A stretch of DNA of 64,000 nt from a virus (IMGVR_UViG_3300045988_176357:128053-192052); one strand, 5' to 3'. Positions 3,740-64,000 are shown, numbered from the stretch's first letter. Numbers and translations are program-made. The notes: generated by a model from the sequence alone, not told the origin.

Positions 3740-3779
3740 AGCAGAAAGTACAAACGGACGCAACGTCCGTAAGTTCATG

Positions 3780-31725: not shown

Positions 31726-32051
31726 TGGCCGCTTCACACCGCGAGGTGTGTCGAACAAGAAAGTGAATTGCTGGGACACCTTAACGGGTAACGCCGAAGG
31801 CAATCAGCAGCCGAGCCATGCGTTCGACAGAACGCCAGCGCATGGAAGGTTCATCGACTATCCCGTACGTAATGGGAGTACCCGAGTAGCCATGTGCGTG
31901 ATAACGCACGAAAGCAAGGGGAAGCACTCTGGCTCAGGAATGAGTCAATGATATAGTCAGTGCGCTTATGGAAACATAAGGAGTGGTCAGGAGTGACAAC
32001 CTGAAACCTGCTACTGGGCGGCAACCGGTAGTGAACAAGATCCTTGGTGTG
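31726..32051 (+). ncRNA. polA intron 1: transposase-less IStron-type group-I-like intron
   Basis: Hairpin cacacc-gcga-ggtgtg plus the conserved core; ends ...ccttggtgtg; junction restores ..SGRFT|ISSLRTSASKPNLQQYP (PolA TGRLSS..PNLQNIP region). Confidence 0.55.
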
Positions 32052-32183
32052 TACAATATCAAGCCTGCGTACATCGGCATCTAAGCCGAATCTCCAACAA
32101 TATCCGTCACACGATCCGGTGTTTGCCTTGAAAAACATGTACAAGCCACCGGATGGAACCATTTTTGTCAGCGTAGACTATAG
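32052..32183 (+). CDS. polA exon 2 (through motif A ..VSVDYS)
   Basis: PNLQQYP and VSVDYS motifs. Confidence 0.6.
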
Positions 32184-33227
32184 CTTCGAAGCGGAGCCTT
32201 CACACCGCGAGGTGTGTCGAACAAGAAAGTGAATTGCTGGGAGTGCATAATGCCTGCGAGGCTACAGCGTAACCGCAAGGTAAGCGCGACAGCTGCGAAA
32301 GCAGAAAGAACACGCAGGATGGCATAAGGTGACAGTAAGCCTAAGTGCTGTGACAATTGCTGATCAGCAGCCGATCAAGGGATCTCCTAAGGCGAAAGCT
32401 ATGGAGCCCGGAAAGGGTTCAGAGACTAAGCGCTCCTTCTCTGGAAACGGAGAAGATGATATAGTCCGATTGTATTTAAATATTATTGCTGTATAATTAG
32501 AATATATAAGGCATTAACCACACAGAATTAACATGGACACAAAACCCGTTGGTTTCATTTACAGAATATATTGTACGTTGTAGTACTGTAGCAAAAGCTA
32601 TATAGGGCAGACACGACACAGCATATAGAAAAGGTTCGCTCAGCACTGTTGTCCTGGAGCGAAGCGAAAGACTTACATAGACAGAGCTATCGCATATCTA
32701 GGTAAATAGCATTTTTGTATCGAGTAGCTTGCAGAAGCACAAACGCTTCAGTAGTTAAATAAGCTGTAGATCTAGTATATAGAGAAGTACGGTAGTTTGT
32801 TTCCGGGTGGATTTAATATATCTAAAGGAGGTACAGTACCGTAGTTTACTTACTCTGGTAAGCCTGTAGTGCATTACTAGACCGGTATTGTATATAGAAA
32901 CAGTCAGTAGGCTGCATAGGCTACAGGTTGTAATGCTTCAGATATTCGTAGTATAGCCAACAAACGTATAAAGTCTACAAAAGGGAATCACTTTTATTGG
33001 TAGTTTACAGCTTTATAGGCTTATTTGGACTTTTGGAATACTCCGGATAAGAATGGTCCGAAGCGTATTATCAATGTCAGTACTGGATAGGTGTTTTAGT
33101 CACAGATAGCTGTATGCAGAAAATACAACCTAACTAAGTCACAGGTATCCAGAATGTGCCTAGGCAAAACAGCTAGTCTGAAGTCGTGTCCTTATGTATT
33201 TGAGTTTTACCAGCAATAAGCAGTTAG
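32184..33227 (+). ncRNA. polA intron 2: second type of group-I-like core (32186-32468, sharing the 5' module) plus a GIY-YIG HEG
   Basis: Core has a close homolog at 34910-35194; ends with G at 33227; junction restores DYS|AELVALAES (compare DYSQIELRILAHLS). Confidence 0.55.
32533..33219 (+). CDS. GIY-YIG homing endonuclease with NUMOD1 DNA-binding module; 15 in-frame TAG codons, no TAA/TGA
   Basis: With TAG read as a sense codon: MDTKPVGFIYRIYCTL.YCSKSYIGQTRHSI.KRFAQH ... STG.VF.SQIAVCRKYNLTKSQVSRMCLGKTASLKSCPYVFEF; stops with TAA 9 nt before the 3' splice site. Confidence 0.7.
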
Positions 33228-33465: not shown

Positions 33466-34498
33466 TAAATAATGTAAAGGAATGTAAAATGTAGTATAGA
33501 TGTTTGGAGTGTGGGTGTCTGTTCTAGGCTAAGCAACCGGCTAAATACTGCTCGCAAGCACATAAACAAAGGAAACAGAACCACAAAAGATAGGTGTATA
33601 TCTGTTTAAATTGCGGTTGTAAATTTTAGAGAGCAAAGCGTTCTGATTATGTTTTTTGCGGGCATAAATGCCGGTGTGCATATAGATAGAGTCATCCTTA
33701 GTTCGACTAGAGATAGTTCGTAGTTAGTAGAATGCAAGCGGATAACACACTGAAGTTCAGTAATAGATAGGCAAAAGCTAAAGCTAATGACATATATTGT
33801 GGTAAAACCCGGTTACGGTGGTCATAGGAAGCTTTAGATGCTTAGCTGTAGAGACGTGGTATATCAGTAACAGATTTTGGTCATAGGTGCTACAATAAAA
33901 CTTTAGCCCAATCGCCCTACGCATAGGTAATTGCGTCTAAATAGAAAACTTTAGATAAGCGTAGACGTATATATGCAAAGAAGAAAGCACTCGGCCTTAT
34001 TGTTACTGAAAAGTCTACTAACCAGAAGGTAAGATAGGCTATAATTAAATAGAGATATGGAATATGCTAGTGCTGTGGTTACTGTCAAAATGTCGATGCT
34101 TTGCAGTTACATCATGCAGATATGGATAGAAGCCACAATAATAAAGCTAATCTAGTTCTCTTATGCGCTAATTGTCATCAGATACTGCATACACGTATAA
34201 AGCGCAATTGGCATATGTATACGTAGCCTAAAGTCACATGTATATTACAATAGTTGCAAAGTATGTAGGCCGAAGTAAAAGAGCGGAATAAAGCGGGAAC
34301 TGCCGACAGGCAAACCCGAACCGAAGGCACGCAGGAATGCGTGTCAGGGGCAACGCGTAGCAGTACGTCCAGCTCGGATATGAACTGCCAAGAGGCCGCT
34401 CCTCTGCAGCCTATGCTGCAAAAATGTACGCTGAACACCGGTGTATGGACAGAAAGACCGGGAGCTATGGGATAAAAAGCCCGTAGGATAACAAATTG
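33466..34498 (+). ncRNA. polA intron 3 carrying an HNH HEG
   Basis: 5' splice site after ggT, 3' splice site after ttG; junction restores NFG|LPGGMKGKRLYQHL (compare NFGLIYGMSAFGLARQL). Confidence 0.55.
33489..34475 (+). CDS. HNH homing endonuclease with N-terminal CxxC zinc-ribbon repeats; 20 in-frame TAG codons, no TAA/TGA
   Basis: With TAG as sense: ..YRCLECGCLF..YCS..YICLNCGCKF... CQCCGYCQNVDALQLHHADMDRSHNNKANLVLLCANCHQILH; ends with TAA ~25 nt before the 3' splice site. Confidence 0.65.
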
Positions 34499-35746: not shown

Positions 35747-36831
35747 GAACAAAAAGAGTACTGAAGAAAAATGCAATCAAGGCCTATAAAGCCTTTAACA
35801 GTGACATGACTTGCAAAGGCTTCCAATATGAAGTCGGCAAGACCTACAGGCATAATGCTGTCTTGAAACTGTGCGAGGCAGGCTTCCATGCTTGCGAAAG
35901 GCTGGCTGACTGTTTCAGTTTTTACCCGTTCAGGGAAGCTGAAACCAGAGTGGCCGAGGTGCTAGTCTGGGGTAAAGTCGAGTATGCAGATACAGGTGTA
36001 AAACTCTGCGCCTCAAATATCAAGATAGTCAGAGAACTTGCATGGAGCGAGGTGTTATCTCTGTGTAACACTGGCTACGATAACAGCGGCCACAGTAACA
36101 GCGGCAACCATAATAGCGGCAGCTGGAACAGTGGCAGCTTTAATAGCAGCAACTGGAACAGCGGCGACTGGAACAGTGGCGGCTTTAATAGCGGCAGCTG
36201 TAATAGCGGCAGCTGTAATAGCGGCAACTGGAACAGTGGCAGCCGTAACAGCGGCGACTATAATATAGGCAACTATAATATAGGCTACGGTAACAGCGGC
36301 AACCAGAACAGCGGCGACTATAATACAGGCGACTGTAACAGCGGCAACAATAACACCGGTGACTGGAATAGCGGCGACTATAACACCGGCAACTATAATA
36401 TAGGCAACTGGAATGCAGGTATATTCAATACAGGGGCTTGTGAATATGCTTTTGCGTTCAATCAGCTTGTCAAGAAACAAGACTTAGAATGTCTTCCAAG
36501 TATACCATTCCTACGTTTTAAGCTTGTCGAATGGATACCGGAAAAGCATATGTTGCCGGAAGAGAAAGAGCAGCACCCTAAGTATGCGACAGCCGGAGGT
36601 TATCTCAAGAAGTACGACTACAAGGAAGCCTTCAGAAAGTCCTTCGAGGAGGCAAAGCGCCTTCCGGATTGGCCCGAACAGCTTAAGAGGCTGAAGGCGC
36701 TGCCCAACTTCAACTTCAAAATCTTTGAAGAGATATCGGGTATCACTGCCGAGGAGTTAACAGGCAGCACTGTCGAGAAGTTGACTACGAAACCGAAACG
36801 CAAACGGGAAAAGAGCACTAAGGGTGCTTAA
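35743..36831 (+). CDS. NxGxx repeat protein, paralog 3
   Basis: Same family as 20644. Confidence 0.6.
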   Translation: MRTKRVLKKNAIKAYKAFNSDMTCKGFQYEVGKTYRHNAVLKLCEAGFHACERLADCFSFYPFREAETRVAEVLVWGKVEYADTGVKLCASNIKIVRELAWSEVLSLCNTGYDNSGHSNSGNHNSGSWNSGSFNSSNWNSGDWNSGGFNSGSCNSGSCNSGNWNSGSRNSGDYNIGNYNIGYGNSGNQNSGDYNTGDCNSGNNNTGDWNSGDYNTGNYNIGNWNAGIFNTGACEYAFAFNQLVKKQDLECLPSIPFLRFKLVEWIPEKHMLPEEKEQHPKYATAGGYLKKYDYKEAFRKSFEEAKRLPDWPEQLKRLKALPNFNFKIFEEISGITAEELTGSTVEKLTTKPKRKREKSTKGA

Positions 36832-40815: not shown

Positions 40816-41431
40816 GATGTTGTTGCAGAAACTGAAGATCGCGCGCGAAAGCAGTTCGCGTGTTGTCTTCTGCTATAAGTATGTCTGGTCCCGAATCGAC
40901 GACTATGTGTCACTGACCAATCTGAGACTGGAAGCAATACAGGTCCGCGACGGCAAGGTCTTCCATACACAGGCCGCTCCAGTGCTTGATGTGAACCATG
41001 GTAAGCCCAGAGTCGCATTCGCAGATTCCGGTATCGTGCAGGTCACCTCAGGACCCCGATCGAACATTGTCTTGAGAGAACGTCTGCTGCACGCCAACGA
41101 GACAGCAGCTCCGGTTCCCTTTTGTGGAACCAGGGAAATTACAGAAAGCAGCGATGAGAAGGATCTTCAGGTAGTCTATGACTTCCTGACATCCGCAGCC
41201 TTTCCTGGCGTGGATATGCGCATGCCGCAGTTGTTCCGGATCACGAAGAACCCTGAAAGGCTGCGCCTGAACATCACACCTGACTTGCTGCAGGCTCTTG
41301 ATCTGGATCCCGGAACACCCAGTAAGGAGATACAGGATGCGTTCCTGAACAAACTGCCTTCCATTTCAGCGCAGACATCCGAAGGATACGTGTTGCCGTT
41401 CAACGTGTGCCGCATGTGTTTCACATGCTGA
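40803..41431 (+). CDS. hypothetical protein
   Basis: ORF. Confidence 0.4.
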
Positions 41432-41442
41432 CCAGCACACAA

Positions 41443-43010
41443 AGGACTCCTTGGCGCGTGAGCGCCATTGAACAAGAAAGTGAATTGCTGGAACACCTTA
41501 ACGGGTCATGCCGAAGGCAATCAGCAGCCGAGCTTATGGATGCCCAGACCGGGCGCCGTGAGAAGGTTCATCGACTATCCCGGAAGGGAGTACCCGAGCA
41601 GCCATGTGACCGGCAGGTCACGAAAGCAAGGGGAAGCACTCTGGCTCAGGAATGAGTCAATGATATAGTCAGTGCGCTTATGGAAACATAAGGAGTGGTC
41701 AGGAGTGACAACCTGAAACCTGCTACTGGGCGGCAACCGGTAGTGAACAGAACCATGGTCTCAAAATAGCAACATTATTTTGACGTTTTGATTTTCATAA
41801 AGGTGATGTATATTATCTGTATACAATAAGGAGCGCCATGTACAGAGCCCATAAGATACGCATAGATTGCACAAAAGAGCAGCACAGTCTGTTAATGCAG
41901 ACTGCAGGCTGCGCTCGTTATGCGTACAACTGGGGACTCGAGAAGTGGGGCAAGCAGTACGAAGCCTGGAAGGCTGATAGCAGCTTGGAGGAACCCAACT
42001 GGGTTAACATATCCAGACAGTGGACACAAGAGAAACCTGAATGGGCAAACAAGACAGCACGCAGTGCTGTTACCTGCTCACTGCGTAATCTCGGCACCGC
42101 CTTCAAGAACTTCTCAAGGCGCAAAGCAAAGTACCCGAAGAGGCATAAGAGGTCTCAAGGAATCTCCTTCCAGCTTGGAAACGATACCTGCAGTATCGAA
42201 GGCAACCGCATCAGGCTGCCTATCATAGACTACGTAAAGCTCCGTGAGACTCCACGATTCCAAGGCAAGATAACAGGCTACACAGTGCAGCTCATCGCTT
42301 CCCACTGGTACGTGACAGTCGCCTTCGACTGTCCAGACGTCCCCAAAGAAGCTCCAGAGTCCGTCGTCGGTATCGACGTAGGACTCCAGCACCCGGCTGT
42401 AGCCTCCGATGGAACAGTACTCCAGCTCCCTCTTGAGAAACTACAGAAGCTCGAAGCCAAACGGCGCAGAGCTCAGCGAGCCCTTTCAAGGAGCAAACGC
42501 AATTCCAATGCGCGAGAGCGCAAGCGTGATAGACTCCAACGTATACAGCAGAGGATCACCAACATCCGACAGGATGCAGTTCACAAGTTTACGACTGCAG
42601 TGTGCAAAAACCACGCCACTGTAGTCACCGAAGATCTGGACATAAACGAGCTCAAAGACAAGGCCCCCGCACGTTCAGTGCGCAGAGCCTACAACAGCTC
42701 CCTTATGGGACTCATTTTGTTCCAGATCTCGTACAAGGCGGTGCACCACGTAAAGGCACCCAAGTTCTTCCCGAGCACCAAGAGATGCTCAACTTGTGGA
42801 CACATTAAGGAGGCCATGCCTCCGCAAATCAGAACATACCATTGCGACCACTGCGGAGCCCATCTCGACAGAGATGAGAACGCAGCTCGCAACTTGATGT
42901 TGCAACCGTGGGTCACACGGTAAGAGGCGCGGTGATGGTACAGGCAGCGTCAGCTGCAGGTACCAGATGATCCGCGAAGACAGTCCGGTGCAACGCCGGA
43001 TGAGATCATG
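41443..43010 (+). mobile_element. IStron copy 4 (subfamily 2), apparently intergenic
   Basis: Hairpin ggcgc-gtga-gcgcc then the core; right-end hairpin atccgg-tgcaacg-ccggat + gagatcatg. Confidence 0.65.
41838..42923 (+). CDS. tnpB: TnpB, intact, 361 aa
   Basis: OrfB N-terminus; zinc finger. Confidence 0.85.
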   Translation: MYRAHKIRIDCTKEQHSLLMQTAGCARYAYNWGLEKWGKQYEAWKADSSLEEPNWVNISRQWTQEKPEWANKTARSAVTCSLRNLGTAFKNFSRRKAKYPKRHKRSQGISFQLGNDTCSIEGNRIRLPIIDYVKLRETPRFQGKITGYTVQLIASHWYVTVAFDCPDVPKEAPESVVGIDVGLQHPAVASDGTVLQLPLEKLQKLEAKRRRAQRALSRSKRNSNARERKRDRLQRIQQRITNIRQDAVHKFTTAVCKNHATVVTEDLDINELKDKAPARSVRRAYNSSLMGLILFQISYKAVHHVKAPKFFPSTKRCSTCGHIKEAMPPQIRTYHCDHCGAHLDRDENAARNLMLQPWVTR

Positions 43011-43119
43011 ACAGTGACTGGGTATATGCAGGCGGCATGATCGCTGCAAGTATAACAGGCATCGGCAAGCATAAGCCTAAGGTACTGTACACCAGAGGTA
43101 TGGACTTCTTCCGTAACTG

Positions 43120-43761
43120 GTGCGCCGCAAAACAGTGGAGTATCCAATGCTGCTGACAGAGTTGTTCGATACATGGGGAACCAAGCCTCTGCTGATGACG
43201 ACTGCGACCAACGGCTTGACACCCGGCAAAGACAAGCTGCTTGGGGTCTGTGTCAAGGACCCTGAGTTCAGCTCAGGTGACAGGCTGCTGCTCAACTACA
43301 CAACAGGCGTAGAACTTCAGCAGTCGTCGAAGTTTCATGGCATCAGTCAGCAGGACATGCAGAGCGCAGGCTTGCAGGAAGCCCAGTTCAAAGACGAGTT
43401 GGACAAGCTGCTATCAGAGAACAGCGTCGCGGTACTCACTTATAATGTACCTTTCCAGAGCAGCTTCTTAGGCGAATGTCTTCCGGAACTGGAAAGCTTG
43501 CCCCTCTATGACCTGACGATCATCGAGAAGGCAATCAGAAACGCCTATGCCTTCGACACTGAAGAGCTGGCGACGTTCAGCTCTTTCTACGCTGCCTGCT
43601 GCCACGCGGCTATGCCTGTACCTCTGGCTACACTGTGCAGGAATCTGAAGATGACTCGACAGCCTCCGCCAGGACAGCTTCCAATGGAACGGATGCTGGA
43701 CGTTTTGCAAGCGCTTTACAACGTAGCTTGCCTTGAAGATATTTCTGTGCTTCCGAGTTGA
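43120..43761 (+). CDS. DnaQ-like (DEDD) exonuclease-fold protein with substituted catalytic residues
   Basis: MTTATNGL in place of FDTETTGL; YN in place of HN; Exo III YDL retained. Confidence 0.35.
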   Translation: MRRKTVEYPMLLTELFDTWGTKPLLMTTATNGLTPGKDKLLGVCVKDPEFSSGDRLLLNYTTGVELQQSSKFHGISQQDMQSAGLQEAQFKDELDKLLSENSVAVLTYNVPFQSSFLGECLPELESLPLYDLTIIEKAIRNAYAFDTEELATFSSFYAACCHAAMPVPLATLCRNLKMTRQPPPGQLPMERMLDVLQALYNVACLEDISVLPS

Positions 43762-44260
43762 AGCTGGGAGTGACGAATCCTGTACCCAAAGCAGTCATCT
43801 ATATCTGCACCTGGGTACAGGGCTTAATGACAGGTGTGCAGGTCTAATCGATTTGCAGCATGCTGTCCTGTTTGTCAAAATTAACCCACAGGAATGTCTA
43901 TCCCACCGGACAATACAGAAGTACGAATCCCTAGCAGGCATCAAGCAACAGTGATTTGTCCGTGGCCTGATCAGCCGGTTTGACAAATTTGGTTTGAACC
44001 TACACGATGCAGCCGGACTTGGAAACTGTGCAGTTAGTCTGTGGTGCAGGTGTCACATAGTTGACCGATAACTGTACCATAGTCTAAGAGACAGAGGATA
44101 CCTGCTATTCGGGATACAGAGGGTATGAAGCTATCATCCCTTTAGTCGTTACTTCCTGCTTCTGTACGTGCGCAGCCTTATACTTGCTCAAGTCTATGCC
44201 GGATGAGACTGCGCCATCTTTAATTGAATACAATTTATGATACTACATAGGAGCTCCTAT
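43762..44260 (+). ncRNA. candidate retron msr/msd-type structured region (speculative)
   Basis: ORF-free ~500 nt directly upstream of the RT 5' exon; 10-bp inverted repeat cctgtaccca/tgggtacagg (43779-43821) and others. Confidence 0.2.
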
Positions 44261-44261
44261 T

Positions 44262-44360
44262 GTGTTGGATACATCTATCAGACCTCCGGATAAATGGAGG
44301 GCAGCAGCAATACCAAAGAAAGACGGATCGTTCAAAATATACTACATATTAGGTATACGT
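44262..44360 (+). CDS. retron-type reverse transcriptase, 5' exon (..AIPKKDGSF..)
   Basis: IPKKDGSF finger motif in a frame open from 44241; start codon uncertain (GTG or TTG). Confidence 0.45.
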
Positions 44361-45928
44361 AAAGGACGCCTTGGCGCGTGAGCGCCATTGAACAAGAAAG
44401 TGAATTGCTGGGACACCTTAACGGGTAATGCCGAAGGCAATCAGCAGCCGAGCTTATGGATGCCCAGACCGGGCGCCATGAGAAGGTTCATCGACTATCC
44501 CATATGGGAGTACCCGAGCAGCCTGGCTGCGACAGCAGCGAAAGCAAGGGGAAGCACTCTGGCTCAGGAATGAGTCAATGATATAGTCAGTGCGCTTATG
44601 GAAACATAAGGAGTGGTCAGGAGTGACAACCTGAAACCTGCTACTGGGCGGCAACCGGTAGTGAACAGAACCATGGTCTCAAAATAGCAACATTATTTTG
44701 ACGTTTTGATTTTCATAAAGGTGATGTATATTATCTGTATACAATAAGGAGCGCCATGTACAGAGCCCATAAGATACGCATAGATTGCACAAAAGAGCAG
44801 CACAGTCTGTTAATGCAGACTGCAGGCTGCGCTCGTTATGCGTACAATTGGGGTCTCGAGAGGTGGGGCAAGATGTACGAAGCCTGGAAGGCTGACAACA
44901 GCTTGGAGAAACCCAACTGGAAAAACATATCCAGACAGTGGACACAAGAGAAACCTGAATGGGCGAACAAGACGACACGCAGTGCTGTCACTTGCTCACT
45001 AAGCAATCTCGGTACTGCCTTCAAGAACTTCATAAGGCGCAAAGCAAAGTACCCGAAGAAGCACAAGAGGTCCCAAGGAATCTCATTCCAGCTTGGAAAC
45101 GATACCTGCAGTATCGAAGGCAACCGCATCAGGCTGCCTATCATAGACTACGTAAAGCTCAGAGAGCTTCCGCGCTTCCAAGGCAAAATCACAGGCTACA
45201 CAGTTCAGTACATAGCTTCCCACTGGTACGTGATAGTCGCCTTCGACTGTCCAGACGTCCCCAAAGAAGCGCCAGAGTCCGTCGTCGGTATCGACGTAGG
45301 ACTCCAGCAACCAGCTGTAGCCTCAGATGGAACCAAGCTAGAGCTACCCATAGAGAAGCTCCAGAAGCTCGAAGCCAAACGACGCAGAGCTCAGCGAGCC
45401 CTTAGCAGGAGCAAGAGGAATTCCAATGCGCGAGAGCGCAAACGGGCCAAGCTTCAACGTATACAACAGAAGATCATCAACATCCGTCAGGATGCAGTTC
45501 ACAAGTTTACGACTGCAGTGTGCAAAAACCACGCAACTGTAGTCACCGAAGATCTGAACATAAACGAGCTCAAAGACAAGGCCCCCGCACGTTCAGTGCG
45601 CAGAGCCTACAACAGCTCCCTTATGGGACTCATTTTGTTCCAGATCTCGTACAAGGCGGTGCACCACGTAAAGGCACCCAAGTTCTTCCCGAGCACCAAG
45701 AGATGCTCAACTTGTGGACACATTAAGGAGGCCATGCCTCCGCAAATCAGAACATACCATTGCGACCACTGCGGAGCCCATCTCGACAGAGATGAGAACG
45801 CAGCTCGCAACTTAATGTTGCAACCGTGGGTCACACGGTAAGATGCGCGGTGATGGTGCTTGTGACATTCGTCACGAGCTCCAGACGATCCGCGAAGACA
45901 ATCCGGTGCAACGCCGGATGAGATCATG
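44361..45928 (+). mobile_element. IStron copy 5 (subfamily 2) inside the RT gene
   Basis: ~93% identical to copy 4; same ends. Confidence 0.65.
44756..45841 (+). CDS. tnpB: TnpB, intact, 361 aa
   Basis: Near-identical to 41838. Confidence 0.85.
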   Translation: MYRAHKIRIDCTKEQHSLLMQTAGCARYAYNWGLERWGKMYEAWKADNSLEKPNWKNISRQWTQEKPEWANKTTRSAVTCSLSNLGTAFKNFIRRKAKYPKKHKRSQGISFQLGNDTCSIEGNRIRLPIIDYVKLRELPRFQGKITGYTVQYIASHWYVIVAFDCPDVPKEAPESVVGIDVGLQQPAVASDGTKLELPIEKLQKLEAKRRRAQRALSRSKRNSNARERKRAKLQRIQQKIINIRQDAVHKFTTAVCKNHATVVTEDLNINELKDKAPARSVRRAYNSSLMGLILFQISYKAVHHVKAPKFFPSTKRCSTCGHIKEAMPPQIRTYHCDHCGAHLDRDENAARNLMLQPWVTR

Positions 45929-46791
45929 ACAGAAGGTACCTGTTGATACCTAACGACGAACTGAAACAAAGACAAAGAGAAATCCTCGACTACCTGTACA
46001 AGGCGCATCTGAGAGTGCACGAGGCTGCTGTCGGCTTCATGCCGAACAAGTGTACTCTCAACGGCTGCTTGCAGCATGCTGCCGATGCACAGGTAATTAT
46101 CAACCTTGATGTACATGATTTCTTCCCCAGCTTTCCTGTAGATAAAGTCAGGTCAGTGTTGACAGCCCAGCTAGGCGCGGCAGTTGCAGACTACATTGTC
46201 GATATAGCAACTTTTAAAGGTAAGCATAGACAGCAGTTGCCTCAAGGTGCGCCGACTAGCCCGTATCTTACCAACATTGCACTTTACAAGTTCGATTGCA
46301 ATATGGCGGCAAATGCGAAACGCAGAGGATTCACGTATACGCGATATGCGGATGACATCACATTGGCGAGCAGCAGCGAGATGCGTGTCAACTACATCAA
46401 GACTCTGATTCACGGAACTGAAAGAAGGTTGCGTGCGCTCGGTCTTACGCTGTCCAGGAAGAAAACAAATGTCATATTCAGGAACAGTCCGCGTGTTCCG
46501 AGACGCATAACAGGGGTAACTGTTCGTAAGGATGGATTCGGATTCAATGCACCTATCGGCTTGCGCAAGCAGGCTCGGGCAATGATACACAACCTGTACA
46601 CAGCACTTAAGAGCGGTGTGCCTGCACAGGAACTTGTACCTGAATATCGCAGTGCAATGGGTACTGTGCAGTATTGCGACTTTATTCGCAGTGCCAGTAT
46701 TGTTCCTGAATGTGCAACAGCCGACCCGGCTATAAAAACACATGAACTCGAATATGTAAAGGGGGTCTTCCGTGCCTATAGACATTATTGA
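45929..46791 (+). CDS. retron-type reverse transcriptase, 3' exon
   Basis: Aligns with Ec86 RT: NLDVHDFFPS, QLPQGAPTSPYLTN, RYADDITL, ITGVTV. Confidence 0.75.
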
Positions 46792-47692
46792 TGGCAATAC
46801 ATCACAATCAGAAATACGCGTTGGCGAAATCTTCAAAGAGTATGGCAATGTAGCTATAAACTTTAATGTCAGCGGCTACCGGACTATGTCGCTTGACGAG
46901 TTCAGGAAGGACGTGCTGCCGTCTTTACAGCCAGCAAAGTGCAGCCAGGCTATGTCGTATTATGTAATACGCGACTTGTCGCACAAAACCTGCTATTGTC
47001 TTCTTCCTGACTGTGTCGAAGAATTCCGTGTCTCATCCTGGTATGAGATCACAACAGACAAGGTGAGAGAAAAGCTCCTGCAGGAAGCCGGACCAAGTGC
47101 AGAGACGGAAATTGTCTTTGACTTGCCTGTGCCTTTGCTCAAGTATCGGTACAATGAGACCTCATGGACCGCGATCGTAAAGATCCCGCATACTAAATTC
47201 ATGTACAGGTCGACATTGCTGGCAGAATGCATTGGCGACGGCATTCTCATCAACTTGCCTCCGTGTATCTTCAAAGTCAAAGCCAACAACAATGACGTAG
47301 TCCAGCAAGTCGCAGTATATGTCATTAAAGCAGACAGTGTTGTTTTTGACAACATCAAACTGGCACATTTGCCTTTACCGAACATATACAACGATGGCAG
47401 CGTGTGCATGGGCAGCACACGCATTGAGGATCAGGCTAGCATTAAGTCAAAGGGGCAGTTGGTGATGGCTGTATGGGATTTGTTCATCAACTCTAACTGG
47501 AACTTGGATCTGCTGACATCAAGTATATTGCCGGACAACTTGATCGACGTGTATGAGTCATTGCCAGTACATGCAGTAGATACAGGGTGCAGCGCCGGAC
47601 GTGTTTTGTCCTTGCTGCAGTTGCTGGATTGTCTGCACGACGATACCGCTTACCTTAATTTGAACTGGGCAGGTCTATATGTTCACGTCTGA
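46772..47692 (+). CDS. E2-like ubiquitin-conjugating enzyme homolog (C-terminal UBC-like domain)
   Basis: LPLPNIYNDGSVCMG matches HPN-x3-4-G-x-[IV]-C; start overlaps the RT stop by 20 nt. Confidence 0.5.
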   Translation: MPIDIIDGNTSQSEIRVGEIFKEYGNVAINFNVSGYRTMSLDEFRKDVLPSLQPAKCSQAMSYYVIRDLSHKTCYCLLPDCVEEFRVSSWYEITTDKVREKLLQEAGPSAETEIVFDLPVPLLKYRYNETSWTAIVKIPHTKFMYRSTLLAECIGDGILINLPPCIFKVKANNNDVVQQVAVYVIKADSVVFDNIKLAHLPLPNIYNDGSVCMGSTRIEDQASIKSKGQLVMAVWDLFINSNWNLDLLTSSILPDNLIDVYESLPVHAVDTGCSAGRVLSLLQLLDCLHDDTAYLNLNWAGLYVHV

Positions 47693-47933
47693 TCTGTTTG
47701 CACGCGCTCCCGAAGCTGCGTTTAGGCAAAGGGCAATGAAGCCGATCAGACAGCGCCCACTTAAGTACATCATCCTGTCCGGTACAGAGATTGATGGAAC
47801 CATGAGCGGTACCTTGATACGTAGCTTAGTCGTGCTCCAATTACGCTCGAAAAGATCAAAGGACGTTATGCGTGCTGTGCTGGAAGTACCAGTCAACGAT
47901 GACGGCCTTAACATTAAAACACTTGAAAACTGA
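47679..47933 (+). CDS. hypothetical small protein
   Basis: ORF within the cassette. Confidence 0.25.
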   Translation: MFTSDLFARAPEAAFRQRAMKPIRQRPLKYIILSGTEIDGTMSGTLIRSLVVLQLRSKRSKDVMRAVLEVPVNDDGLNIKTLEN

Positions 47934-47944
47934 AAGGAAAAACG

Positions 47945-48361
47945 ATGGTAAAAATCTACACTAAAGGGCACGATACTGTGCATCATCCTTCGCATTATGC
48001 AACACAGGCACTCCCATGTCACATAGAGTGTCAGGATATCAGGCGGCATTTACCGCAGGCGGTTGCGGACGCTTTCAAGTATGTATGGCGTTCCGGCTCA
48101 AAGGGCACACCTAAAGATGCAGAGACAGACATCAGGAAAGCCGTCTGGTATCTTGACGATTTCTTTGAGCACTTTACAGTCAGTCAGTTCGACTTCACAA
48201 CAGCAAAAGCTGTATTCGATCTGGTTGCCCTGGTATCACAGGAGACATGGCGAGCAGAGGCATTGACATACCTTGTACATGGCAAAGTCAATGAGGCACG
48301 TGAAGTTCTTGTGAAATATCTTGATGAGAAGGAGAAAGTTTATGCGCAGCAAAGTGTTTGA
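47945..48361 (+). CDS. hypothetical protein
   Basis: ORF within the cassette. Confidence 0.35.
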   Translation: MVKIYTKGHDTVHHPSHYATQALPCHIECQDIRRHLPQAVADAFKYVWRSGSKGTPKDAETDIRKAVWYLDDFFEHFTVSQFDFTTAKAVFDLVALVSQETWRAEALTYLVHGKVNEAREVLVKYLDEKEKVYAQQSV

Positions 48362-49262
48362 AACCGGCGGGTACATTTACATCGACAGCCCCAACGCAAA
48401 GGGCTGGCATCAATGCGAACCGGAAGAGTTCTTTGCCAACCAGCGTCCATACGATACAGAGCTCAACAAGGATCTGCTGAAGTGGACAGGCGCCAAAGTC
48501 GGAAAGGATCTGCTGCTGCAGGTAGCGGCACTGGCAAACTGTTTTCCCAGAATGGAAATCATGGTCTGCCTGTATTACAGCAGCGCAGAACAGAAGTGGC
48601 TGGCGAATGTACCTAAGCAGAAGGGTTCCGGTGCGCACGTCAAGTACGATGATGAGGATTTTGCGCCGCCGAAAGGCTACGAGTTCCTCGGCACCATACA
48701 CACTCATCCTGAAATGTCGGCTTTCTGGTCATGTGTCGATCGCAATGATCAGAACCGTAAGAACGGGTTGCATCTTGTACTCGGTCTGAGAAACGGAAAG
48801 ATCAACGAGGTCCTGTGCAGCCTGTTCTACAACGGTAAGCAGTACGATCAGCCTGATGCGTATGAGCTGCCTGCAGCGGATGACCCGCTGCCTGAAGTCA
48901 ATGAGGACTGGAAAGCGAAAGTGACCATACAGGAGCTTGCAGAACCTAAACTGAATATCATAAAGGACACTGACGCATTTCTCGAACCCAGATGGTTGCC
49001 TGATGCAGATGGCAGGTATAAGTTCAGTTACGACAGTGACAGCATCAGTCCATGCCTGTCAGACACAGCCAGTTACTTCGATGTTCTGCACGCTGCAGTC
49101 AAGCTCAATGAGCAACAGATGTATGATCTTTGTGGCCAACTGCTCGAGATACTTGGTCAACAAGAACTGGCCGACGAAGTTGATGTAGCAGCCTTTGATG
49201 CAGCTCTTGGAGATGAAGATGATACATGTTGTGAGGCACGGTATGATCAGGAATCCACTTAA
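48342..49262 (+). CDS. JAB/MPN (JAMM) metalloprotease-like
   Basis: HTHPEMSAFWSCVD matches HxHx7Sx2D. Confidence 0.65.
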   Translation: MRSKVFETGGYIYIDSPNAKGWHQCEPEEFFANQRPYDTELNKDLLKWTGAKVGKDLLLQVAALANCFPRMEIMVCLYYSSAEQKWLANVPKQKGSGAHVKYDDEDFAPPKGYEFLGTIHTHPEMSAFWSCVDRNDQNRKNGLHLVLGLRNGKINEVLCSLFYNGKQYDQPDAYELPAADDPLPEVNEDWKAKVTIQELAEPKLNIIKDTDAFLEPRWLPDADGRYKFSYDSDSISPCLSDTASYFDVLHAAVKLNEQQMYDLCGQLLEILGQQELADEVDVAAFDAALGDEDDTCCEARYDQEST

Positions 49263-50148
49263 TGTCGTAGTGATTGGGTGCGGAGGTATCGGCGGCTATC
49301 TTTGTCGACTGCTTCCACAGACAATGGCATGCCTGTATGTCGATTCCCTGGGTGCCGACCAGGCTCAGCAGCTCATGCAGTCGGAAGGGATGTCTGATGA
49401 CGTGCGAGCTTCAGGCGCAGTCTTCAGCTCCCTTACCCTTATAGATGGCGACACGTTCTCAGGACATAACGCACTTAGGCAGGAAGGAACGGCTGGCAGC
49501 AAGCTGGCAACTGTCATGTCTATGATACGCAGCACAGACGCCTTCAGTACCTGGCTCAACGCCACGGAACTTGTCGGGTATAACAACTACATCACGCCCA
49601 GGAACATACATAAAATCTTAGATCCCTTGTATAACGTCGTCATATTCCTGTGTGTCGACAACCATAAAACAAGGTACGAAGTGACCAGATGGGCAGTGGA
49701 TCAGAAAACACAGAATATCCTGATCATTAACGGCGGCAATAAGAAAACAGCCGGGAATGTCACGGTATTCCAGAATAACGCAGGCAAGCTTCTCGATCCC
49801 CCTATCTACAAGCTGTATCCTGAAGTGACGGACAAGTTTGATCGTCGTCCCGACGAGATAGACTGCGGCTCAGTGTCGGTAACCAACGACCAGACAGCAG
49901 TGACCAACAATATGATAGCATCTATAATGCTCGCCATGTTCAGCAAGTATGTTCGCACAGGGGGCTTCGACCAGAAAACCAGACATAAAGATGCCAATGG
50001 AAACAACATTGTAGTCAGGAAAAATGAAGTCGTAGTCGACTTCGAAACCATGACTATGCAATCGTTCGCACATTCACCGGACACAGACAATACGCCTTTG
50101 CAGTCGGCACTCGAGGGAGTTCCGGAAGGCGAGACAGAAATCATATAA
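49195..50148 (+). CDS. E1-like (ThiF/MoeB family) adenylyltransferase
   Basis: VIGCGGIGG Rossmann motif; LIDGDTFSGHNALRQ compared with DxDxVExSNLNRQ. Confidence 0.6.
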   Translation: MMQLLEMKMIHVVRHGMIRNPLNVVVIGCGGIGGYLCRLLPQTMACLYVDSLGADQAQQLMQSEGMSDDVRASGAVFSSLTLIDGDTFSGHNALRQEGTAGSKLATVMSMIRSTDAFSTWLNATELVGYNNYITPRNIHKILDPLYNVVIFLCVDNHKTRYEVTRWAVDQKTQNILIINGGNKKTAGNVTVFQNNAGKLLDPPIYKLYPEVTDKFDRRPDEIDCGSVSVTNDQTAVTNNMIASIMLAMFSKYVRTGGFDQKTRHKDANGNNIVVRKNEVVVDFETMTMQSFAHSPDTDNTPLQSALEGVPEGETEII

Positions 50149-50162
50149 GAAAGGAAACACAA

Positions 50163-50483
50163 ATGCACAAACTCACAATCAACGGATCCACCTCCACCCA
50201 GATCAAACTCGGACGTTACACCACAGTGCTCAATCTCAGGAAGGCCCTGCAGGAAGTAGGGTACAACGTTAAAGGCAAGGCGTGCCTTATCAAGCAGACG
50301 CACAGCAGCATGCCCGCCAGAGCCAGAGACAATTACGTCATCCAGTACGGAGACGAGATCGAGTTTACCAACGTGCCGCCCAAGATCGGAGCCAGAAAAG
50401 AGCGTGGTTCAGGAACCACTGTCACTGTAGGACGCAACACATTCACGTTCAATGACGGCGTTCTCATCATCTGCAGCCTGTGA
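50163..50483 (+). CDS. small protein, possible ubiquitin-like beta-grasp
   Basis: Size and operon position only. Confidence 0.3.
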   Translation: MHKLTINGSTSTQIKLGRYTTVLNLRKALQEVGYNVKGKACLIKQTHSSMPARARDNYVIQYGDEIEFTNVPPKIGARKERGSGTTVTVGRNTFTFNDGVLIICSL

Positions 50484-50521
50484 TTACAACTAACAAACTA
50501 TAATACGAAAGGAAAACACAT

Positions 50522-51943
50522 ATGATCATCATTGCAACTGCTAACAACAACGAAAACCTCAACAACATCAGGATCAACCTTGACAACAGCATCTCTCTCG
50601 GTCAGCTTCTCGACAGAGATGATGTTCGTGCATTCTTCCACAATGCCAGCAAAGAGAGCATTCTGGCAAGCCTCGTTACCATTGACGGACTCGATGCCTA
50701 TGCCATTACGAATGCGAGCTCTCTGACTGTTGACAATACTATGGAATTGCAGTTCGACATCTACGGCAGAGCACCGGAGACCGCACATACAGCTGCTGCT
50801 TCCGCCGGGTTCGTCACAATTACTCAGGGCGGAGGTTTCAACAGCAAGCGTGTGCCTATTGTGTCAGATACGACAAGAGCAGGGGATGTGCTTACACAGG
50901 ATGTGGCCAATTTCTTCGCCACAACTGTGGATACTCTGCACAATATGCGTATTCTTATCAATGATGTCGAGGCGGAAACAACAGCTGTACTGCACGACGG
51001 CGACGCGATTACTCTCATGTCCAGAAAGTGCGGCGACAAGGGGGCATGTGTACCCATTCTTGCAATTACGCATACTGACGGATCTGTGACGAGACATGCA
51101 GTCCTTGCAGGTTCCAGGCTCAAGGAATGTCTCTCCAGGATTGTTCCCGGTGCGGTAGTGCTGTCTATCGACGGTACAGCGGTACCCATGAACTTCTATG
51201 ATGCTATTGTAGAAGGCAAGCTGGTTGACAAGGACATGCAAGTGACTGTCAACGATAACAAGAAGTGCACGGTGCATTGCTGCGCCAATGACGGCAGTGA
51301 TCCGGTCGACATGATCCTGGATGATGGCAGTTCTGTGATGGACCTGCTTACCAAAGTACAGGACAAGTTTGAAAACGCTGAGATCTATGTCTTTGACGTG
51401 GACGGCGATCTGGTACCGGAAGCTTTCGCCGATACCATCCTGACTAATACACTTGTCGTTGATGGTATGTATGTAACTTTCAGTTCGCTGCGTGAGATGC
51501 CTGTTGTACATGGCTATATGAACATGGAAGACGACAGCGAAGAAGATGAAGAAGATGAAGAAGATGGTGCTGAGTATGCAGATGACGAGCAGGTACTTGA
51601 AGGTCCTGCAGAAGATGCTGTAGGCGCCGTAACAGTCGTTCTTCCCGGGGGCTTCAGCACCTCTCAGGTCGCAATCAGGAACAATGTGACGAAGCTTCGT
51701 GATGTTGTTCTCAGCGCACGTATTCTGAATATGTCTGCGATGAACGAAAGCCAGGCGCAGACTCTCGTATACACAGTGAACGATGTCGAGAGCAATCTCG
51801 ATGATACTCTGAGCATCGGTGATGTGATCCGGATGTCTGCACGTAAAGCAGGCGACAAAGGAAGTGCATTGAAAGTTACTGTCAAGCTGATGGATGCCAC
51901 CGAATTCCGGTATGACGTGGAGCCGGGGACAAGGCTCGAGGCT
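50522..51943 (+). CDS. multi-domain ubiquitin-like protein, exon 1
   Basis: Repeated ~90-aa modules ending (I/M)S(R/A)K(C/A)GDKG; acidic linker; ORF runs into the IStron E 5' end. Confidence 0.45.
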
Positions 51944-53606
51944 TAACAACCTCCATTGAGGAGTGATCCTCAATGCAAAGAAAGTGAATTGCTAATAGAT
52001 CCCAAGAGTCTCACGACGCCTTTAACAAGGATCGAAAGAGAAAACAAAGAAGTGAGGATACCGCAAGGCGACAGTAAGCCTAAACGGGAGTGACAACGGA
52101 CGTTTAGCAGCCGAGCCTTGTATCGAGAGATACCCGGTACAAGGAAGGTTCATCGACTAGGACATCGTGTCCGTACCCGAGCAGCCGTGTGCGTGATAAC
52201 GCACGAAAGCAAGGGGAAGTACTCTGGCTCAGGAATGAGTCAATGAAATAGTCAGTGCTTCATGGAAACATGAAGAGTGGTCAGGAGTGACAACCTGAAA
52301 CCTGCTACTGGGCGGCAACCGGTAGTGAACAGAACCATGGACTTCAATTGTATTGTTATTTCGTCAAGTTTTATTTACCGTTTTGATCTTTACAGAACGG
52401 AGTTATAATACTCTCAGTAACTGGAGAACACTTTGGAACCAAGAGCACACATAATCAGATTGTACCCGACAAGGGCACAGGAGAAGCAGCTGAAGAATAC
52501 CATCGGCTGCGCTCGTTATGCGTACAATTGGGCTCTCGAGAAGTGGCGGGAGATGTATGCCGCACATGATAAGGACAAGGCTTCTCCAAAGCCAAGTGCC
52601 TTGAAGCTGACCAAGTTATGGACTCAGGAGAAGCCTGACTGGGCACATGAGACAGCTTATTGCAGCCAGCAAAGAGCGATACATAACGTAGGCGTCGCTT
52701 ATCAGCGCCTTTAGAGGGGCTTATCGGCGAAGCCGAAGTTCCATAAGAAGGGCGGCAAGGAGACGTTTTACGTTGATAATGCGAAGGTCGCATGGTACGG
52801 CAATAGAATCCAGTTGCCCGACATCGGACGTGTCCGCGTAGCGGAGCAGATCCGTTTCGAGGGCAAGGTAATGGGCTACACAGTGTCCCATTATGCCGGA
52901 CAGTGGCATCTCATAGCTCAGGTCAACGCCGAAGGTGATGTGAAACCTTATTGTGCCAATCCAGAGTCCGTCGTCGGTATCGACGTAGGACTTCTGAATC
53001 CTGCTGTAGCCTCCGATGGAACCGTCTTGGAGCTCCCTATTGAGAAGCTTCAGAAGCTCGACGCCAAACTCAGGCGACAGCAGAAGGCACTCTCCCGTTC
53101 ACAAAGAAACTCCAGAAACCACGCGAAGCTTCTCATAAAGAAGCAGCGTACACAGAATAAGATCAACAACATCCGTAAGGATGCAGTACATAAGTTCACG
53201 ACCACCATTGCCAAGAGCCACGGCAAGGTAGTCATCGAAGATCTGGACATCCAAGGAATGAAGGATAAAGCTCCTTCAAGAGCCGTCAGAAGGGCGCATA
53301 ACAGTTCCCTCATGGGCGCCATCCATCGGCAGCTCTCCTACAAAGTCCAGCACCTGATCAAGGTGAATCGCTTCTTCCCGTCTTCCAAGACCTGCAGCAA
53401 CTGCGGGCACATAAGGAGCGCCCTTGATTTAAGTGAACGTACATATCATTGCGACCACTGCGGAGCGGTCATCGACCGCGACCTCAATGCCGCAATCAAC
53501 TTGATGAAATCAGGGCTGGTCGAGCCCGAAGCGTCTGTGGAGCAAGTCGGTACCGACTTGCGTCGAAGCAGAAAGTACAAACGGATGCAATGTCCGTAAG
53601 TTCATG
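51944..53606 (+). mobile_element. IStron copy E (~98% identical to copy A) inside the multi-ubiquitin-like gene
   Basis: Same 5' end (gaggct|taacaacctccattgaggagtgatcctca) and right end; junction ...RLEA|TDFLMS is in frame. Confidence 0.7.
52433..53599 (+). CDS. tnpB: TnpB with in-frame TAG at 52712-52714
   Basis: Same TAG position as copy A. Confidence 0.75.
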
Positions 53607-54017
53607 ACAGATTTCCTTATGTCTAATTATCCGGACTCCATTGTACTTGGCATCAATGGTGTCAGGGTAGATCCTGAGTTCTATGTGCCTGTTCTTGATG
53701 GCTTCACCCTGAACAGAGATACTGTGCTGATTGTGAAGGCCAGCCCGAAGATGACAGTGCACTGTTACTCCGGACATGTCGAGCCAAGCCTCTACTGCAC
53801 ATCTTATAAGATGAATTACGACAGTACCGTACAGGACTTGCTTAAACTGGTACAGAAGGACTTCGGCAATGAAGACATACGCGTGACGCAGATTGATCTC
53901 AAGGACGTACCGGAAGACTTTATGCAGGTTATCCTGGCAGGCACGTTTATTACAGAGCAAATGGTTGTTACTTTCAATGAGCTCAATGGAGCGGGAAAGG
54001 CACGCAAGACACTGTAA
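53607..54017 (+). CDS. multi-ubiquitin-like protein, exon 2 (ends ..NGAGKARKTL)
   Basis: In-frame continuation after the IStron. Confidence 0.45.
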   Translation, partial: TDFLMSNYPDSIVLGINGVRVDPEFYVPVLDGFTLNRDTVLIVKASPKMTVHCYSGHVEPSLYCTSYKMNYDSTVQDLLKLVQKDFGNEDIRVTQIDLKDVPEDFMQVILAGTFITEQMVVTFNELNGAGKARKTL

Positions 54018-62607: not shown

Positions 62608-62754
62608 CAGCACCAGTCGTAGAGATTCACTGTGCACACGTATAAGTGCACAATTCCTGCAGGGGCATCGGATACAAGTCCGGTGTCCCTGCTCTTTAGT
62701 ACGCTACAGCATTTGTTACCGGCCAATAAGACCGGCAGCAACAAAAGAGGTATT

Positions 62755-63700
62755 ATGACAAAGACTATTGTCAAAAGAGACGGACGCACAGAAGCGTTCG
62801 ATGCCGCCAAAATCAAAGCAGCAATCGAAGCAGCAATGGTAGCTGTGCACAAAGGGCTGACAGGTGACCTCGCACAGAAAGCTGTGCAGCTGTCAGAGCA
62901 GATCGCACAGAGCACAGAAGACGGTGCCAGCATAGAAAGCATCCAGGACAGGGTCGAGAAGGGTCTGATGGATGCAGATCTGATAGAGGAAGCCAAAGCC
63001 TACATCAAGTACAGAGCGGCGCGTACGGATATACGTGAGGCCCGCACGCACCTGATGAAGATCATCGACAGCTTCTTCACAGAGAAGCAGGACGACGGCA
63101 GCTCGCACAAAGAAAATGCGAACATCAATGCGTCCTCAGTATCTGGAGCCTTCTACAGAATCGGCTCGGAGGCAAGCAAGGACTATTATACCAGGTGTCT
63201 GATTCCGTCTGAATTCGTAGAAGCGCATACGAACGGATATTTGCATTATCACGATGCAGACTATTATGGTCTCAGTCTCAACTGTATGCAGCATGACCTC
63301 GGTAAGATGTTTAAGAAAGGTTTCTCCACAGGCAACGCCTATATAGGGGAGCCTCAGAGCATCACATCAGCAATGGCGCTGACTTGTGTTATTCTGCAGA
63401 GCGGGCAGACGGACCTGTTCGGCGGCGAGAGCATTCCGGCATGGGACTTCTACATGGAACCCTATGTTGAGAAGAGCTTTAAGAAGGCGCTGAAGAAGCA
63501 TCTCGAGAACATGGCCTTTGCGCCTGCGAACATGCAGGAGCTGTGGGTCAAGGAAAACGGGTACCAGGAACACACACCTGTGTTCGAGAACGACGACTTA
63601 TACAAGGCCTACAAGTGGGCCAAGCGTGACGTCGAAGCTGAGACGTACCAGGCTGCACAAGCCATGGTGTATAACTTGAATTCCTTAGCCAGCAGGGCCT
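62755..63700 (+). CDS. nrdD: anaerobic ribonucleotide reductase NrdD (class III), 5' exon with ATP cone
   Basis: NGYLHYHDADYYG...GNAYIGEPQSI aligns with T4 NrdD; ORF ends at a TGA that straddles the intron 5' end. Confidence 0.75.
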
Positions 63701-63702
63701 GA

Positions 63703-64000
63703 TTGGCCCCTTCACACCGCGAGGTGTGTCGAACAAGAAAGTGAATTGCTGGGACACCTTAACGGGTCATGCCGAAGGCAATCAGCAGCCGAGCCTTGTA
63801 TCGAGAGCTACCCGGTACAAGAAAGGTTCATCGACTATCCCATAAGGAATGGGAGTACCCGACAAGTGAAGGGGAAGCACTCTTGGTTGGGAACAACCAA
63901 ATGATATAGTCAGTGCTTCATGGAAACATGAAGAGTGGTCTCGAAAGAGAAACCTGGCGGTACGTAACGAGTACCGTTGAACAGAACCTTGGTGTGTACA
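63703..64000 (+). ncRNA. transposase-less IStron-type group-I-like intron in nrdD (runs to the window edge)
   Basis: ttggccccttcacaccgcgaggtgtgtcgaacaagaaagtgaattgctggg...; same type as polA intron 1; window ends at ...ccttggtgtgtaca. Confidence 0.5.

Follow-up and report, generated by a model that had tools for sequence, protein, structure and literature searches.

A retron-type reverse transcriptase linked to a candidate ubiquitin-like conjugation cassette in uncultured gut phages

Introduction

Retrons combine a reverse transcriptase (RT) with an msr/msd RNA and an effector, and the RT together with its multicopy single-stranded DNA (msDNA) controls the retron effectors. Like the Bil, Bub and CBASS Cap2 conjugation systems, they are an active topic in the study of phage-bacteria conflict, and these systems have so far been treated as separate and host-owned. 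Here we analyze a block of genes at 44262-54017 of a 64,000-nt viral sequence (IMGVR_UViG_3300045988_176357:128053-192052; hereafter the window, to which positions refer unless another locus is named). In this block, a predicted retron-type RT gene is followed by a cassette encoding a putative E2, a JAB peptidase, an E1 and candidate ubiquitin-like (Ubl) proteins.

The BilABCD operons (type I and II Bil; operon types 6c and 6d of Iyer 2006) encode the same four activities as the cassette in the window: a Ubl, an E2 with its Cys, a JAB peptidase and an E1. In BilABCD, the genes are ordered Ubl-E2-DUB (deubiquitinase)-E1, and the E1 comprises tandem inactive and active adenylation domains with a PF14459 N-terminus (PMC10557695). 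Multi-beta-grasp Ubls occur both in BilABCD and in the window, and in both the Ubl Gly is followed by a few residues removed by the JAB peptidase, a step that is predicted for the window (PMC10557695). By contrast, the order here is E2-small protein-JAB-E1-Ubl, the E1 (~300 aa) has only one ThiF domain, the E2 joins a Prok-E2_D domain to an extra N-terminal domain, and the genes are phage-encoded and linked to an RT. The likeness to Bil put forward in the original prediction, which was made from the sequence of the window without database searches, hence extends to the Gly-plus-tail of the Ubl, the E2 Cys and the JAB peptidase, but not to the architecture of the E1 or to the gene order.

For three of the components, the best-named NCBIfam matches are to PRTRC (TIGR03734-03742), a ParB-related, ThiF-related cassette of plasmids and integrative and conjugative elements that is, as here, borne by mobile elements. 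The JAB protein matches PRTRC_A (E=1.1e-7), the E1 PRTRC_ThiF (E=9e-11) and the E2 PRTRC_B, with scores that fall far under the curated cutoffs of TIGR03735, TIGR03736 and TIGR03737 (31.6 vs 101.8, 41.6 vs 144.75 and 21.6 vs 131.45 bits, respectively). No ParB family was present among the Pfam calls of neighboring genes in relatives, in which no search was aimed at ParB, and no description of an RT in PRTRC was found in a literature that mentions PRTRC at the annotation level only. Unlike type II CBASS (Cap2/Cap3) and Bub operons, the block contains neither a CD-NTase nor an E1-E2 fusion, the E1 and E2 being encoded by separate genes. The PADLOC models for Cap2 (E1-E2) and Cap3 (JAB) match marginally (E about 1e-3), and no PADLOC model matches the E2 or Ubl proteins. 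Judged by these comparisons, the predicted Ubl enzymes of the window are only distant relatives of those in PRTRC and Bil.

As in retrons, the RT of the window presents YADD, VTG-like and NAxxH-like motifs and lies in one operon with candidate effector genes; in contrast to retrons, no msr/msd was found, and the RT belongs to the core genes of a phage clade. Neither ubiquitin nor ThiF nor JAB is mentioned in the account of retron types I-XIII by Mestre 2020 (PMC7736814). None of the 13 types has E1/E2/JAB/Ubl effectors, in agreement with the original prediction, for which no such retron type was known. Furthermore, Iyer 2006 mentions no RT, and no paper joining retrons with ubiquitin, ThiF or JAB was found in the literature searched. 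We conclude that the association on phages of a retron-type RT with a PRTRC/Bil-like Ubl cascade is real, and that it constitutes an apparently undescribed RT-associated Ubl system.

Results

All the genes in 44262-54017 are encoded on the + strand as one RT + E2/JAB/E1/Ubl block (Table 1), in which neighboring cassette genes overlap by 20 nt at most, a packing that is kept in relatives. In particular, the RT stop codon at 46791 lies 20 nt inside the E2 open reading frame (ORF), which starts with a GTG at 46772, as had been described; the other ORFs and motifs quoted in the original prediction were likewise all recovered in place. The sequences indicate that RT, E2, JAB and E1 all retain their catalytic residues. 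The operon has zero in-frame TAG codons, and all the cassette ORFs are intact once the introns described below, which close relatives lack, are removed. Genes for replication and repair functions (DEDDh exonuclease, NAD-ligase, RusA and RNase H) surround the cassette, whose presumed phage origin is borne out by its occurrence in IMG/VR contigs and in contigs of 170-190 kb. Searches against GenBank phages returned no DNA match to the region and no protein match to the E1.

After splicing, the RT is a protein of 309 aa containing the motif IPKKDGSLRYLLIPNDELK, the same length as the uninterrupted ORF of L001, a close IMG/VR relative on a 95-kb contig that lacks both insertions and provided the reference for their limits. 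The QLPQGAPTSP, RYADDITL and ITGVTV motifs are present, together with an NAxxH-like motif, and Pfam RVT_1 is detected in ORF 45943-46791 (E=3.7e-22); the YADD is invariant across RT relatives. The top 25 PADLOC matches of the spliced RT are all retron RT models (RT_XIII, 161 bits; III-A, 146; II-A, 146). The best NCBIfam model is retron_St85_RT (155.7 bits, under the family cutoff of 235), with much lower scores for group II intron and DRT models, and the only matches in GenBank phages are retron-type RTs at 24-33% identity. The enzyme is hence retron-type and belongs to the retron or retron-like RT clade, without being assignable to Ec86 or any other described type, so that its initial description as clearly Ec86-like stands with regard to the retron type, but not to the Ec86 assignment. 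A diversity-generating retroelement was considered and rejected: other than the IStron copies, there is no template/variable repeat pair at 43.6-47 kb, and the RT has the QGxxxSP motif of retrons and group II introns and matches retron models best.

The E2, E1 and JAB assignments of the original prediction were all supported by profile matches. Pfam Prok-E2_D is detected in the E2 ORF (E=6.4e-8, 33 bits vs a cutoff of 25), which contains the predicted UBC-type active-site motif. The Cys in this motif is invariant among relatives, and the E2 has a predicted UBC fold; a PDB sequence search with the E2 profile gave no match. Word-index protein searches with the E2 returned only 4-7 relatives, and an exhaustive profile search was required. 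The JAB protein matches Pfam Prok-JAB (E=1.4e-5, 25.3 bits vs a cutoff of 25) and contains the sequence HTHPEMSAFWSCVD anticipated for a JAMM protease, with a full E...HxHx7Sx2D motif (E79, H127, H129, S137 and D140) that is invariant in 10 homologues, including bacterial ones. The E1 presents a ThiF domain (Pfam, E=4.6e-12) as well as the VIGCGGIGG and GDTFSGHNALRQ sequences on which its identification had been based, and its invariant motifs (Gly-rich loop, DxDxxxxxNxxRQ and VDN) and residues (G28/G30/G31/G33, N92, R95, Q96, D155 and C224) are conserved. Since a relative with 96% identity is 301 aa long, the true E1 start probably lies at about 49243.

Two small ORFs had been noted between the E2 and JAB genes, and only the first is a conserved part of the cassette. 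This ORF was found in every sampled cassette, including that of the bacterial locus L027, and encodes a protein of 73-97 aa that was compared across nine phage-clade loci and matches no family in Pfam or PHROG searches. The second, a DUF3310-sized ORF, is limited to the window, L001, L003 and L004, and is probably a lineage-specific insertion outside the system. In another locus of the clade (L029), an extra gene of 174 aa is located between JAB and E1 instead.

The precursor encoded downstream of the E1 is 608 aa long when spliced (607 aa, uninterrupted, in L001). It shares with its relatives a Ubl module of ~82 aa that ends in ...GDxIxLxxRxAxxKG, and in the window it contains two Gly sites, RKCGDKG and RKAGDKG. 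L006 terminates at this Gly (...AANKG*), L003 and L004 end one residue past it, right after the second site (...AGDKGK*), and L027 ends in ...GGVKGN*. In the Ubl frame of L026, ...AGEKG is followed by further residues; in the remaining relatives, 2-22 residues follow the Ubl Gly and, in the window, further modules do. This conserved Gly at or near the C-terminus of the Ubl module is in keeping with JAB-mediated trimming. Weak profile signals, all in the same direction, favor a beta-grasp fold: MoaD (0.034, PDB), the C-terminus of E. coli MoaD (3e-4, hhalign), TGS (7.6e-4), thiS (0.0047) and matches to ThiS, RnfH and Mut7-C. The large modular protein had been predicted to consist of beta-grasp modules and to be split by a mobile element; these signals and the precise insertion at 51942-53610 agree with that description. 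The 106-aa protein encoded between the E1 and the precursor had been proposed as a further Ubl. The ORF is present, with homologues of 106-183 aa at the same position in relatives, and shows a beta-grasp-like pattern with a GDEIEF-type core, but it lacks a terminal Gly and matches no family in Pfam or NCBIfam, and is probably not conjugated.

RT-E2 gene neighborhoods were searched for in databases, as suggested in the original prediction. The phage clade was represented by 14 loci with enough sequence (window/L001, L003, L004, L005, L008, L023, L024, L025, L029, L030, L031, L055, L056 and L057), and the order ORF-X (minus strand), RT, E2, small protein, JAB, E1, Ubl-like protein, Ubl precursor and RusA was found in 14/14, with identity falling to 23% for the E2 and 31% for the E1. 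The E1 profile search returned more than 227 clusters, many of them on contigs of 170-190 kb, and the metagenome relatives derive from human gut samples, one of them on a 191.6-kb contig. In L023/L055 and L024, an NAD-dependent ligase gene (LigA) separates RT from E2, and the successive genes overlap, indicating that strict translational coupling is not required. A truncated gene lies just upstream of the E2 in L006; it has no similarity to the RT, and its C-terminus looks BRCT-like to us, which would be in keeping with a ligase.

Outside this clade, the RT was found with the cassette in other arrangements. The 198.6-kb viral contig L063 presents Prok-E2_D, JAB, ThiF and a 110-aa protein followed by an RVT_1 RT; in the 204-kb viral contig L058, the order is E2-like, JAB, ThiF and RT, the E1 stop and RT start being overlapped; and in L061 an RT is encoded ~3 kb upstream of E2-JAB. 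In L027, an Omnitrophota metagenome-assembled genome (MAG), an RT with 34% identity to that of the window is followed by a 412-nt spacer, an E2-like protein, a 97-aa protein, JAB, E1, a 71-aa Ubl and RadC; the spacer between RT and E2 folds with a z-score of -4.7 and a 14-15-bp terminal stem. No match to the L027 E2 was obtained in the plasmid search. A crude neighbor-joining tree divides the cassette-linked RTs into at least two or three groups. With the profile assignments upheld and RT co-occurrence recurring elsewhere, the proposed RT-associated ubiquitin-like system is supported as a candidate. Two further loci were set aside: the 'reverse transcriptase-like' gene of the Bacillales plasmid Cytobacillus pN497 encodes an RVT_3 RNase-H-type domain, and the Subdoligranulum 168-kb 'plasmid' (L032) is not a member of the clade.

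The search for a retron non-coding RNA (ncRNA) centered on the 500 nt upstream of the RT (43762-44261), which is the only apparent gap, there being no intergenic space within the cassette. This stretch is well conserved and its + strand folds with a z-score of -4.9. Across four loci, however, the + strand values are inconsistent (-4.9, -6.0, -2.7 and -0.4), the minus strand folds too (-3.35), the covariation term of RNAalifold is only -2, which is negligible, and no Rfam match was found. Homologous ORFs of 176-194 aa (22-33% identity) are encoded on the minus strand in L005, L023, L024 and L025, and in L029-L031 minus-strand ORFs of 143-202 aa correspond by position alone. In-frame stops in the frame of ORF-X are all TAG (8/8 in the window, 6/6 in L003, 8/8 in L004 and 6/6 in L008), the window copy having at least 8 TAG and no TAA or TGA; ORF-X matches no Pfam family. 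A conserved structured RNA upstream of the RT is not firmly supported, in view of these homologous ORFs, the TAG-only interruptions and the inconsistent z-scores.

In addition, TAG terminates none of the window's 51 + strand genes (27 end in TGA and 24 in TAA), and the ORFs of two homing endonucleases on the same strand, GIY-YIG (32533-33219) and HNH (33489-34475), contain 15 and 20 in-frame TAG, respectively. Together with the TAG-only interruptions, these features indicate that this phage very probably reads TAG as a sense codon, and that the apparent gap is a gene, ORF-X, which is translatable only where TAG is read as sense. No suppressor tRNA was found in the window. Standard-code gene calls are therefore misleading in this phage group, where an apparently non-coding gap corresponds to a TAG-recoded antisense gene. 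The RT could nevertheless use a + strand transcript antisense to ORF-X as its template.

The two interruptions in the operon, delimited by colinear alignment with L001, have the composition of IStrons: each is predicted to carry a 5' group I ribozyme part and a TnpB ORF, is inserted precisely in a coding sequence and restores the reading frame on removal. The first starts exactly at a full-length match to Rfam Intron_gpI (E=4e-9; 43.2 bits vs a gathering score of 50), and its TnpB matches NCBIfam guided_TnpB (212.7 bits); at gathering thresholds, Rfam detects nothing across the window, and group I introns emerge only under an E-value threshold. The RT insertion is absent from ten near-identical metagenome loci, and L021, in which only RT residues 1-29 are matched, may be another interrupted copy; this insertion is therefore recent and polymorphic. 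Both IStrons are missing from close relatives, so that they are recent insertions, and we treat them as passengers outside the RT-Ubl system. At least six TnpB/IStron copies of two sequence families are present in the window (786-1871, ~2110-3740, ~10715-12288, ~41400-43050, 44333-45932 and 51942-53610), the second element recurring at 2110-3740 and 10715-12288. The TnpB ORFs at 2606-3739 and 52433-53599 contain one in-frame TAG each. Intron-like 5' parts devoid of TnpB lie at 31718-32286 and 63696-63798; the NrdD ORF (62632-63702) ends at the start of the latter, and NrdD is probably split too.

Table 1. Predicted features of the RT-Ubl block and the adjacent ORF-X, in window coordinates.
Feature	Position	Strand	Description
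ORF-X	43577..44248	-	Directly upstream of the RT; ATG at 44248, 13 nt from the RT start
RT exon 1	44262..44332	+	GTG start; encodes ...AAAIPKKDGS; colinear with the uninterrupted L001 RT; spliced translation
IStron in RT gene	44333..45932	+	Group I intron match 44333-44611; TnpB ORF 44756-45841; ends ...TCATGACAG
RT exon 2	45933..46791	+	Palm motifs QGAPTSP, YADD; VTG-like ITGVTV; RVT_1 3.7e-22
E2	46772..47692	+	N-terminal beta-rich domain and UBC-like domain; putative catalytic Cys212 (LPNIYNDGSVCMG)
Small protein	47679..47933	+	ORF between E2 and JAB; C-terminal D-x-x-x-L-(N/D)-I motif
DUF3310-like gene	47945..48361	+	DUF3310 2.7e-4; PHROG 'nucleotide kinase' families
JAMM/JAB metallopeptidase	48321..49262	+	N-terminal domain; variable C-terminal tail
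ThiF-type E1	49195..50148	+	One adenylation domain, ~300 aa
106-aa protein	50163..50483	+	Beta-grasp-like by sequence pattern only (...YGDEIEF...); C-terminal extension
Poly-Ubl precursor exon 1	50522..51941	+	N-domain, Ubl module A (...RKCGDKG), two modules, acidic linker, Ubl module B (...RKAGDKG)
Second IStron ('IStron E') in precursor	51942..53610	+	TnpB ORF 52433-53599 with one in-frame TAG; ends ...TCATGACAG
Poly-Ubl precursor exon 2	53611..54017	+	Two extra modules beyond the second GDKG site

Discussion

The organization described above suggests that the region forms a single early or middle operon, belonging to a large and as yet uncultured gut phage with a recoded TAG, and encodes a complete Ubl conjugation pathway and a retron-type RT, an interpretation that we hold to be somewhat probable. 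In such a pathway, the JAMM peptidase would trim the precursor after ...KG, in a manner similar to the processing of polyubiquitin or BilA. The ThiF-type E1 would then adenylate the exposed Gly, possibly with passage of the Ubl via the invariant E1 Cys, and the Ubl would be transferred as a thioester to E2 Cys212 and subsequently onto lysines of target proteins, a modification that the JAB peptidase could reverse. No recognizable E3 is encoded. The RT would act in the same pathway, with either the enzyme or its complementary DNA (cDNA) product regulating E1/E2 or providing target specificity, by analogy with the control that RT-msDNA exerts on retron effectors. We infer these conjugation, cleavage and cDNA steps from the encoded sequences. 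Adjacency that survives rearrangement is a classical sign of functional linkage, and we consider it reasonably probable that the RT and the Ubl cassette are functionally coupled.

Several observations weigh against a coupled conjugation system. No retron-like ncRNA was established, the gap adjacent to the RT being a minus-strand coding gene with variable fold z-scores. The beta-grasp assignment relies on weak profile signals, and a single-sequence AlphaFold2 model reached a predicted local distance difference test (pLDDT) score of 33. LigA separates RT and E2 in L023 and L024. Among the environmental viral contigs, the 11 for which upstream sequence was available (L035-L044 and L047) have no RT within the 7-kb flank fetched; JAB and E1 were identified in all of them by TBLASTN, as was the E2 in 10 of the 11 (L040 was also examined with Pfam). 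In the Acidobacteria MAG L026 (4920-10201), the place of the RT directly upstream of E2-JAB-E1 is taken by an AAA+ ATPase, a ThiS-like Ubl follows and there is no RT. Two Bacillales plasmids with relatives of the cassette also lack an RT, no retron RT is encoded in three plasmids with E1 matches, and three RT relatives occur without a cassette nearby. Finally, the entire neighborhood is syntenic across the clade, so that adjacency within it is by itself weak evidence of function.

Many of these points would be expected if two independent modules lay side by side, with the RT belonging to a replication/recombination module, in which it would provide cDNA or primers, the E2/JAB/E1/Ubl genes constituting a separate insertion, and their adjacency reflecting synteny and operon packing. 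The colinearity of the whole region in the clade, the LigA gene between RT and E2, the proximity of RusA and RNase H, the absence of the RT from most environmental E2/JAB/E1 cassettes and the RT relatives devoid of a cassette all accord with this explanation. Nonetheless, the RT is again found beside the cassette after rearrangement, 3' of the E1 in L058 and L063, and it is linked to it in a bacterial MAG (L027) without phage replication genes. Chance adjacency in several unrelated arrangements is unlikely, and we regard independent modules as the less probable account, though one with a substantial minority share of our expectation.

A phage-borne, retron-style defense is an improbable alternative. 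It would posit that RT-msDNA restrains the Ubl machinery until a competing phage disturbs it, leading to the tagging of invader proteins and to superinfection exclusion. The retron type of the RT and the Bil-like logic of a Ubl with a Gly and short tail trimmed by a JAB peptidase are in line with such a role, Bil being known to conjugate its Ubl to tail proteins of phage. So are the RadC and DUF6573 genes that flank the bacterial L027 locus, both of them typical of mobile elements. Against it, the cassette is a universal and syntenic core of the clade, located in the replication module rather than in a variable accessory island, no ncRNA was demonstrated, and the E2 and Ubl proteins fall outside the PADLOC models. 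A sulfur-carrier or cofactor pathway of the ThiS/MoaD-ThiF type, or a decayed remnant, instead of protein conjugation, is very improbable, for although the Ubl modules match MoaD and ThiS best, if weakly, and IStrons interrupt two genes, an E2 with an invariant Cys and UBC fold and a JAMM peptidase are present, no sulfur-transfer family appears in the gene calls of relatives, the ORFs are intact after intron removal, with close relatives devoid of introns, and conservation is deep.

Within a coupled RT-Ubl system, we favor use by the phage during infection, either as counter-defense acting on host proteins or on its own replication proteins, over classical host defense, because the clade has the cassette among its core features, and because the cassette lies in the replication module and avoids TAG codons. 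A more speculative and rather unlikely extension is that an msDNA-like cDNA of the RT, templated perhaps by a + strand transcript antisense to ORF-X or, in L027, by the folded spacer between RT and E2, might stand in for the missing 'E3'. It would operate as a nucleic-acid bait or switch, either recruiting an opponent's DNA-binding proteins to the charged E2 or licensing E1/E2, resulting in a nucleic-acid-guided, offensive form of Ubl tagging in which ORF-X would fit a late off-switch. The proteins recruited in this way could be host defense or repair proteins, or those of a rival phage.

According to the analysis, a full E1/E2/DUB/Ubl cascade belongs to the core genes of uncultured gut phages that form a very large clade, with repeated linkage to a retron-type RT. 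If the link is functional, the cassette would represent a new class of retron-like effectors and the first RT to work with a protein-tagging pathway, and it would imply that phages themselves employ ubiquitin-like tagging.

Additional observations

Homologues of JAB and E1 are common in large environmental viral contigs (L035-L047, IMG/VR, 18-240 kb). In one of these (L040, 3357-9718), the E2 forms the N-terminal part of a protein of 829 aa, another ThiF gene follows, and a multisubunit RNA polymerase beta'-like gene adjoins. The gene right after the RT in L058 (9773-10153) and L063 (9783-10124) encodes a protein of ~115-125 aa with a C-terminus ending in ...DDIPF or ...DGIPF. By eye, we take its N-terminus to be SpoVG-like and its tail to resemble the acidic tip of bacterial single-stranded DNA-binding proteins (SSBs); if this resemblance holds, it is possible that the protein is a nucleic-acid-binding partner of the RT. 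Elsewhere in the window, a helicase/KaiC-like ORF at 15865-18363 contains an intein with a Hint domain and a LAGLIDADG homing endonuclease. Tandem repeats of 15 nt are found inside paralogous genes at 20905-21504 and 35989-36400, and several gene families recur 4-5 times over the length of the window, as for instance around 20.6, 24.6, 35.7 and 59.4 kb.

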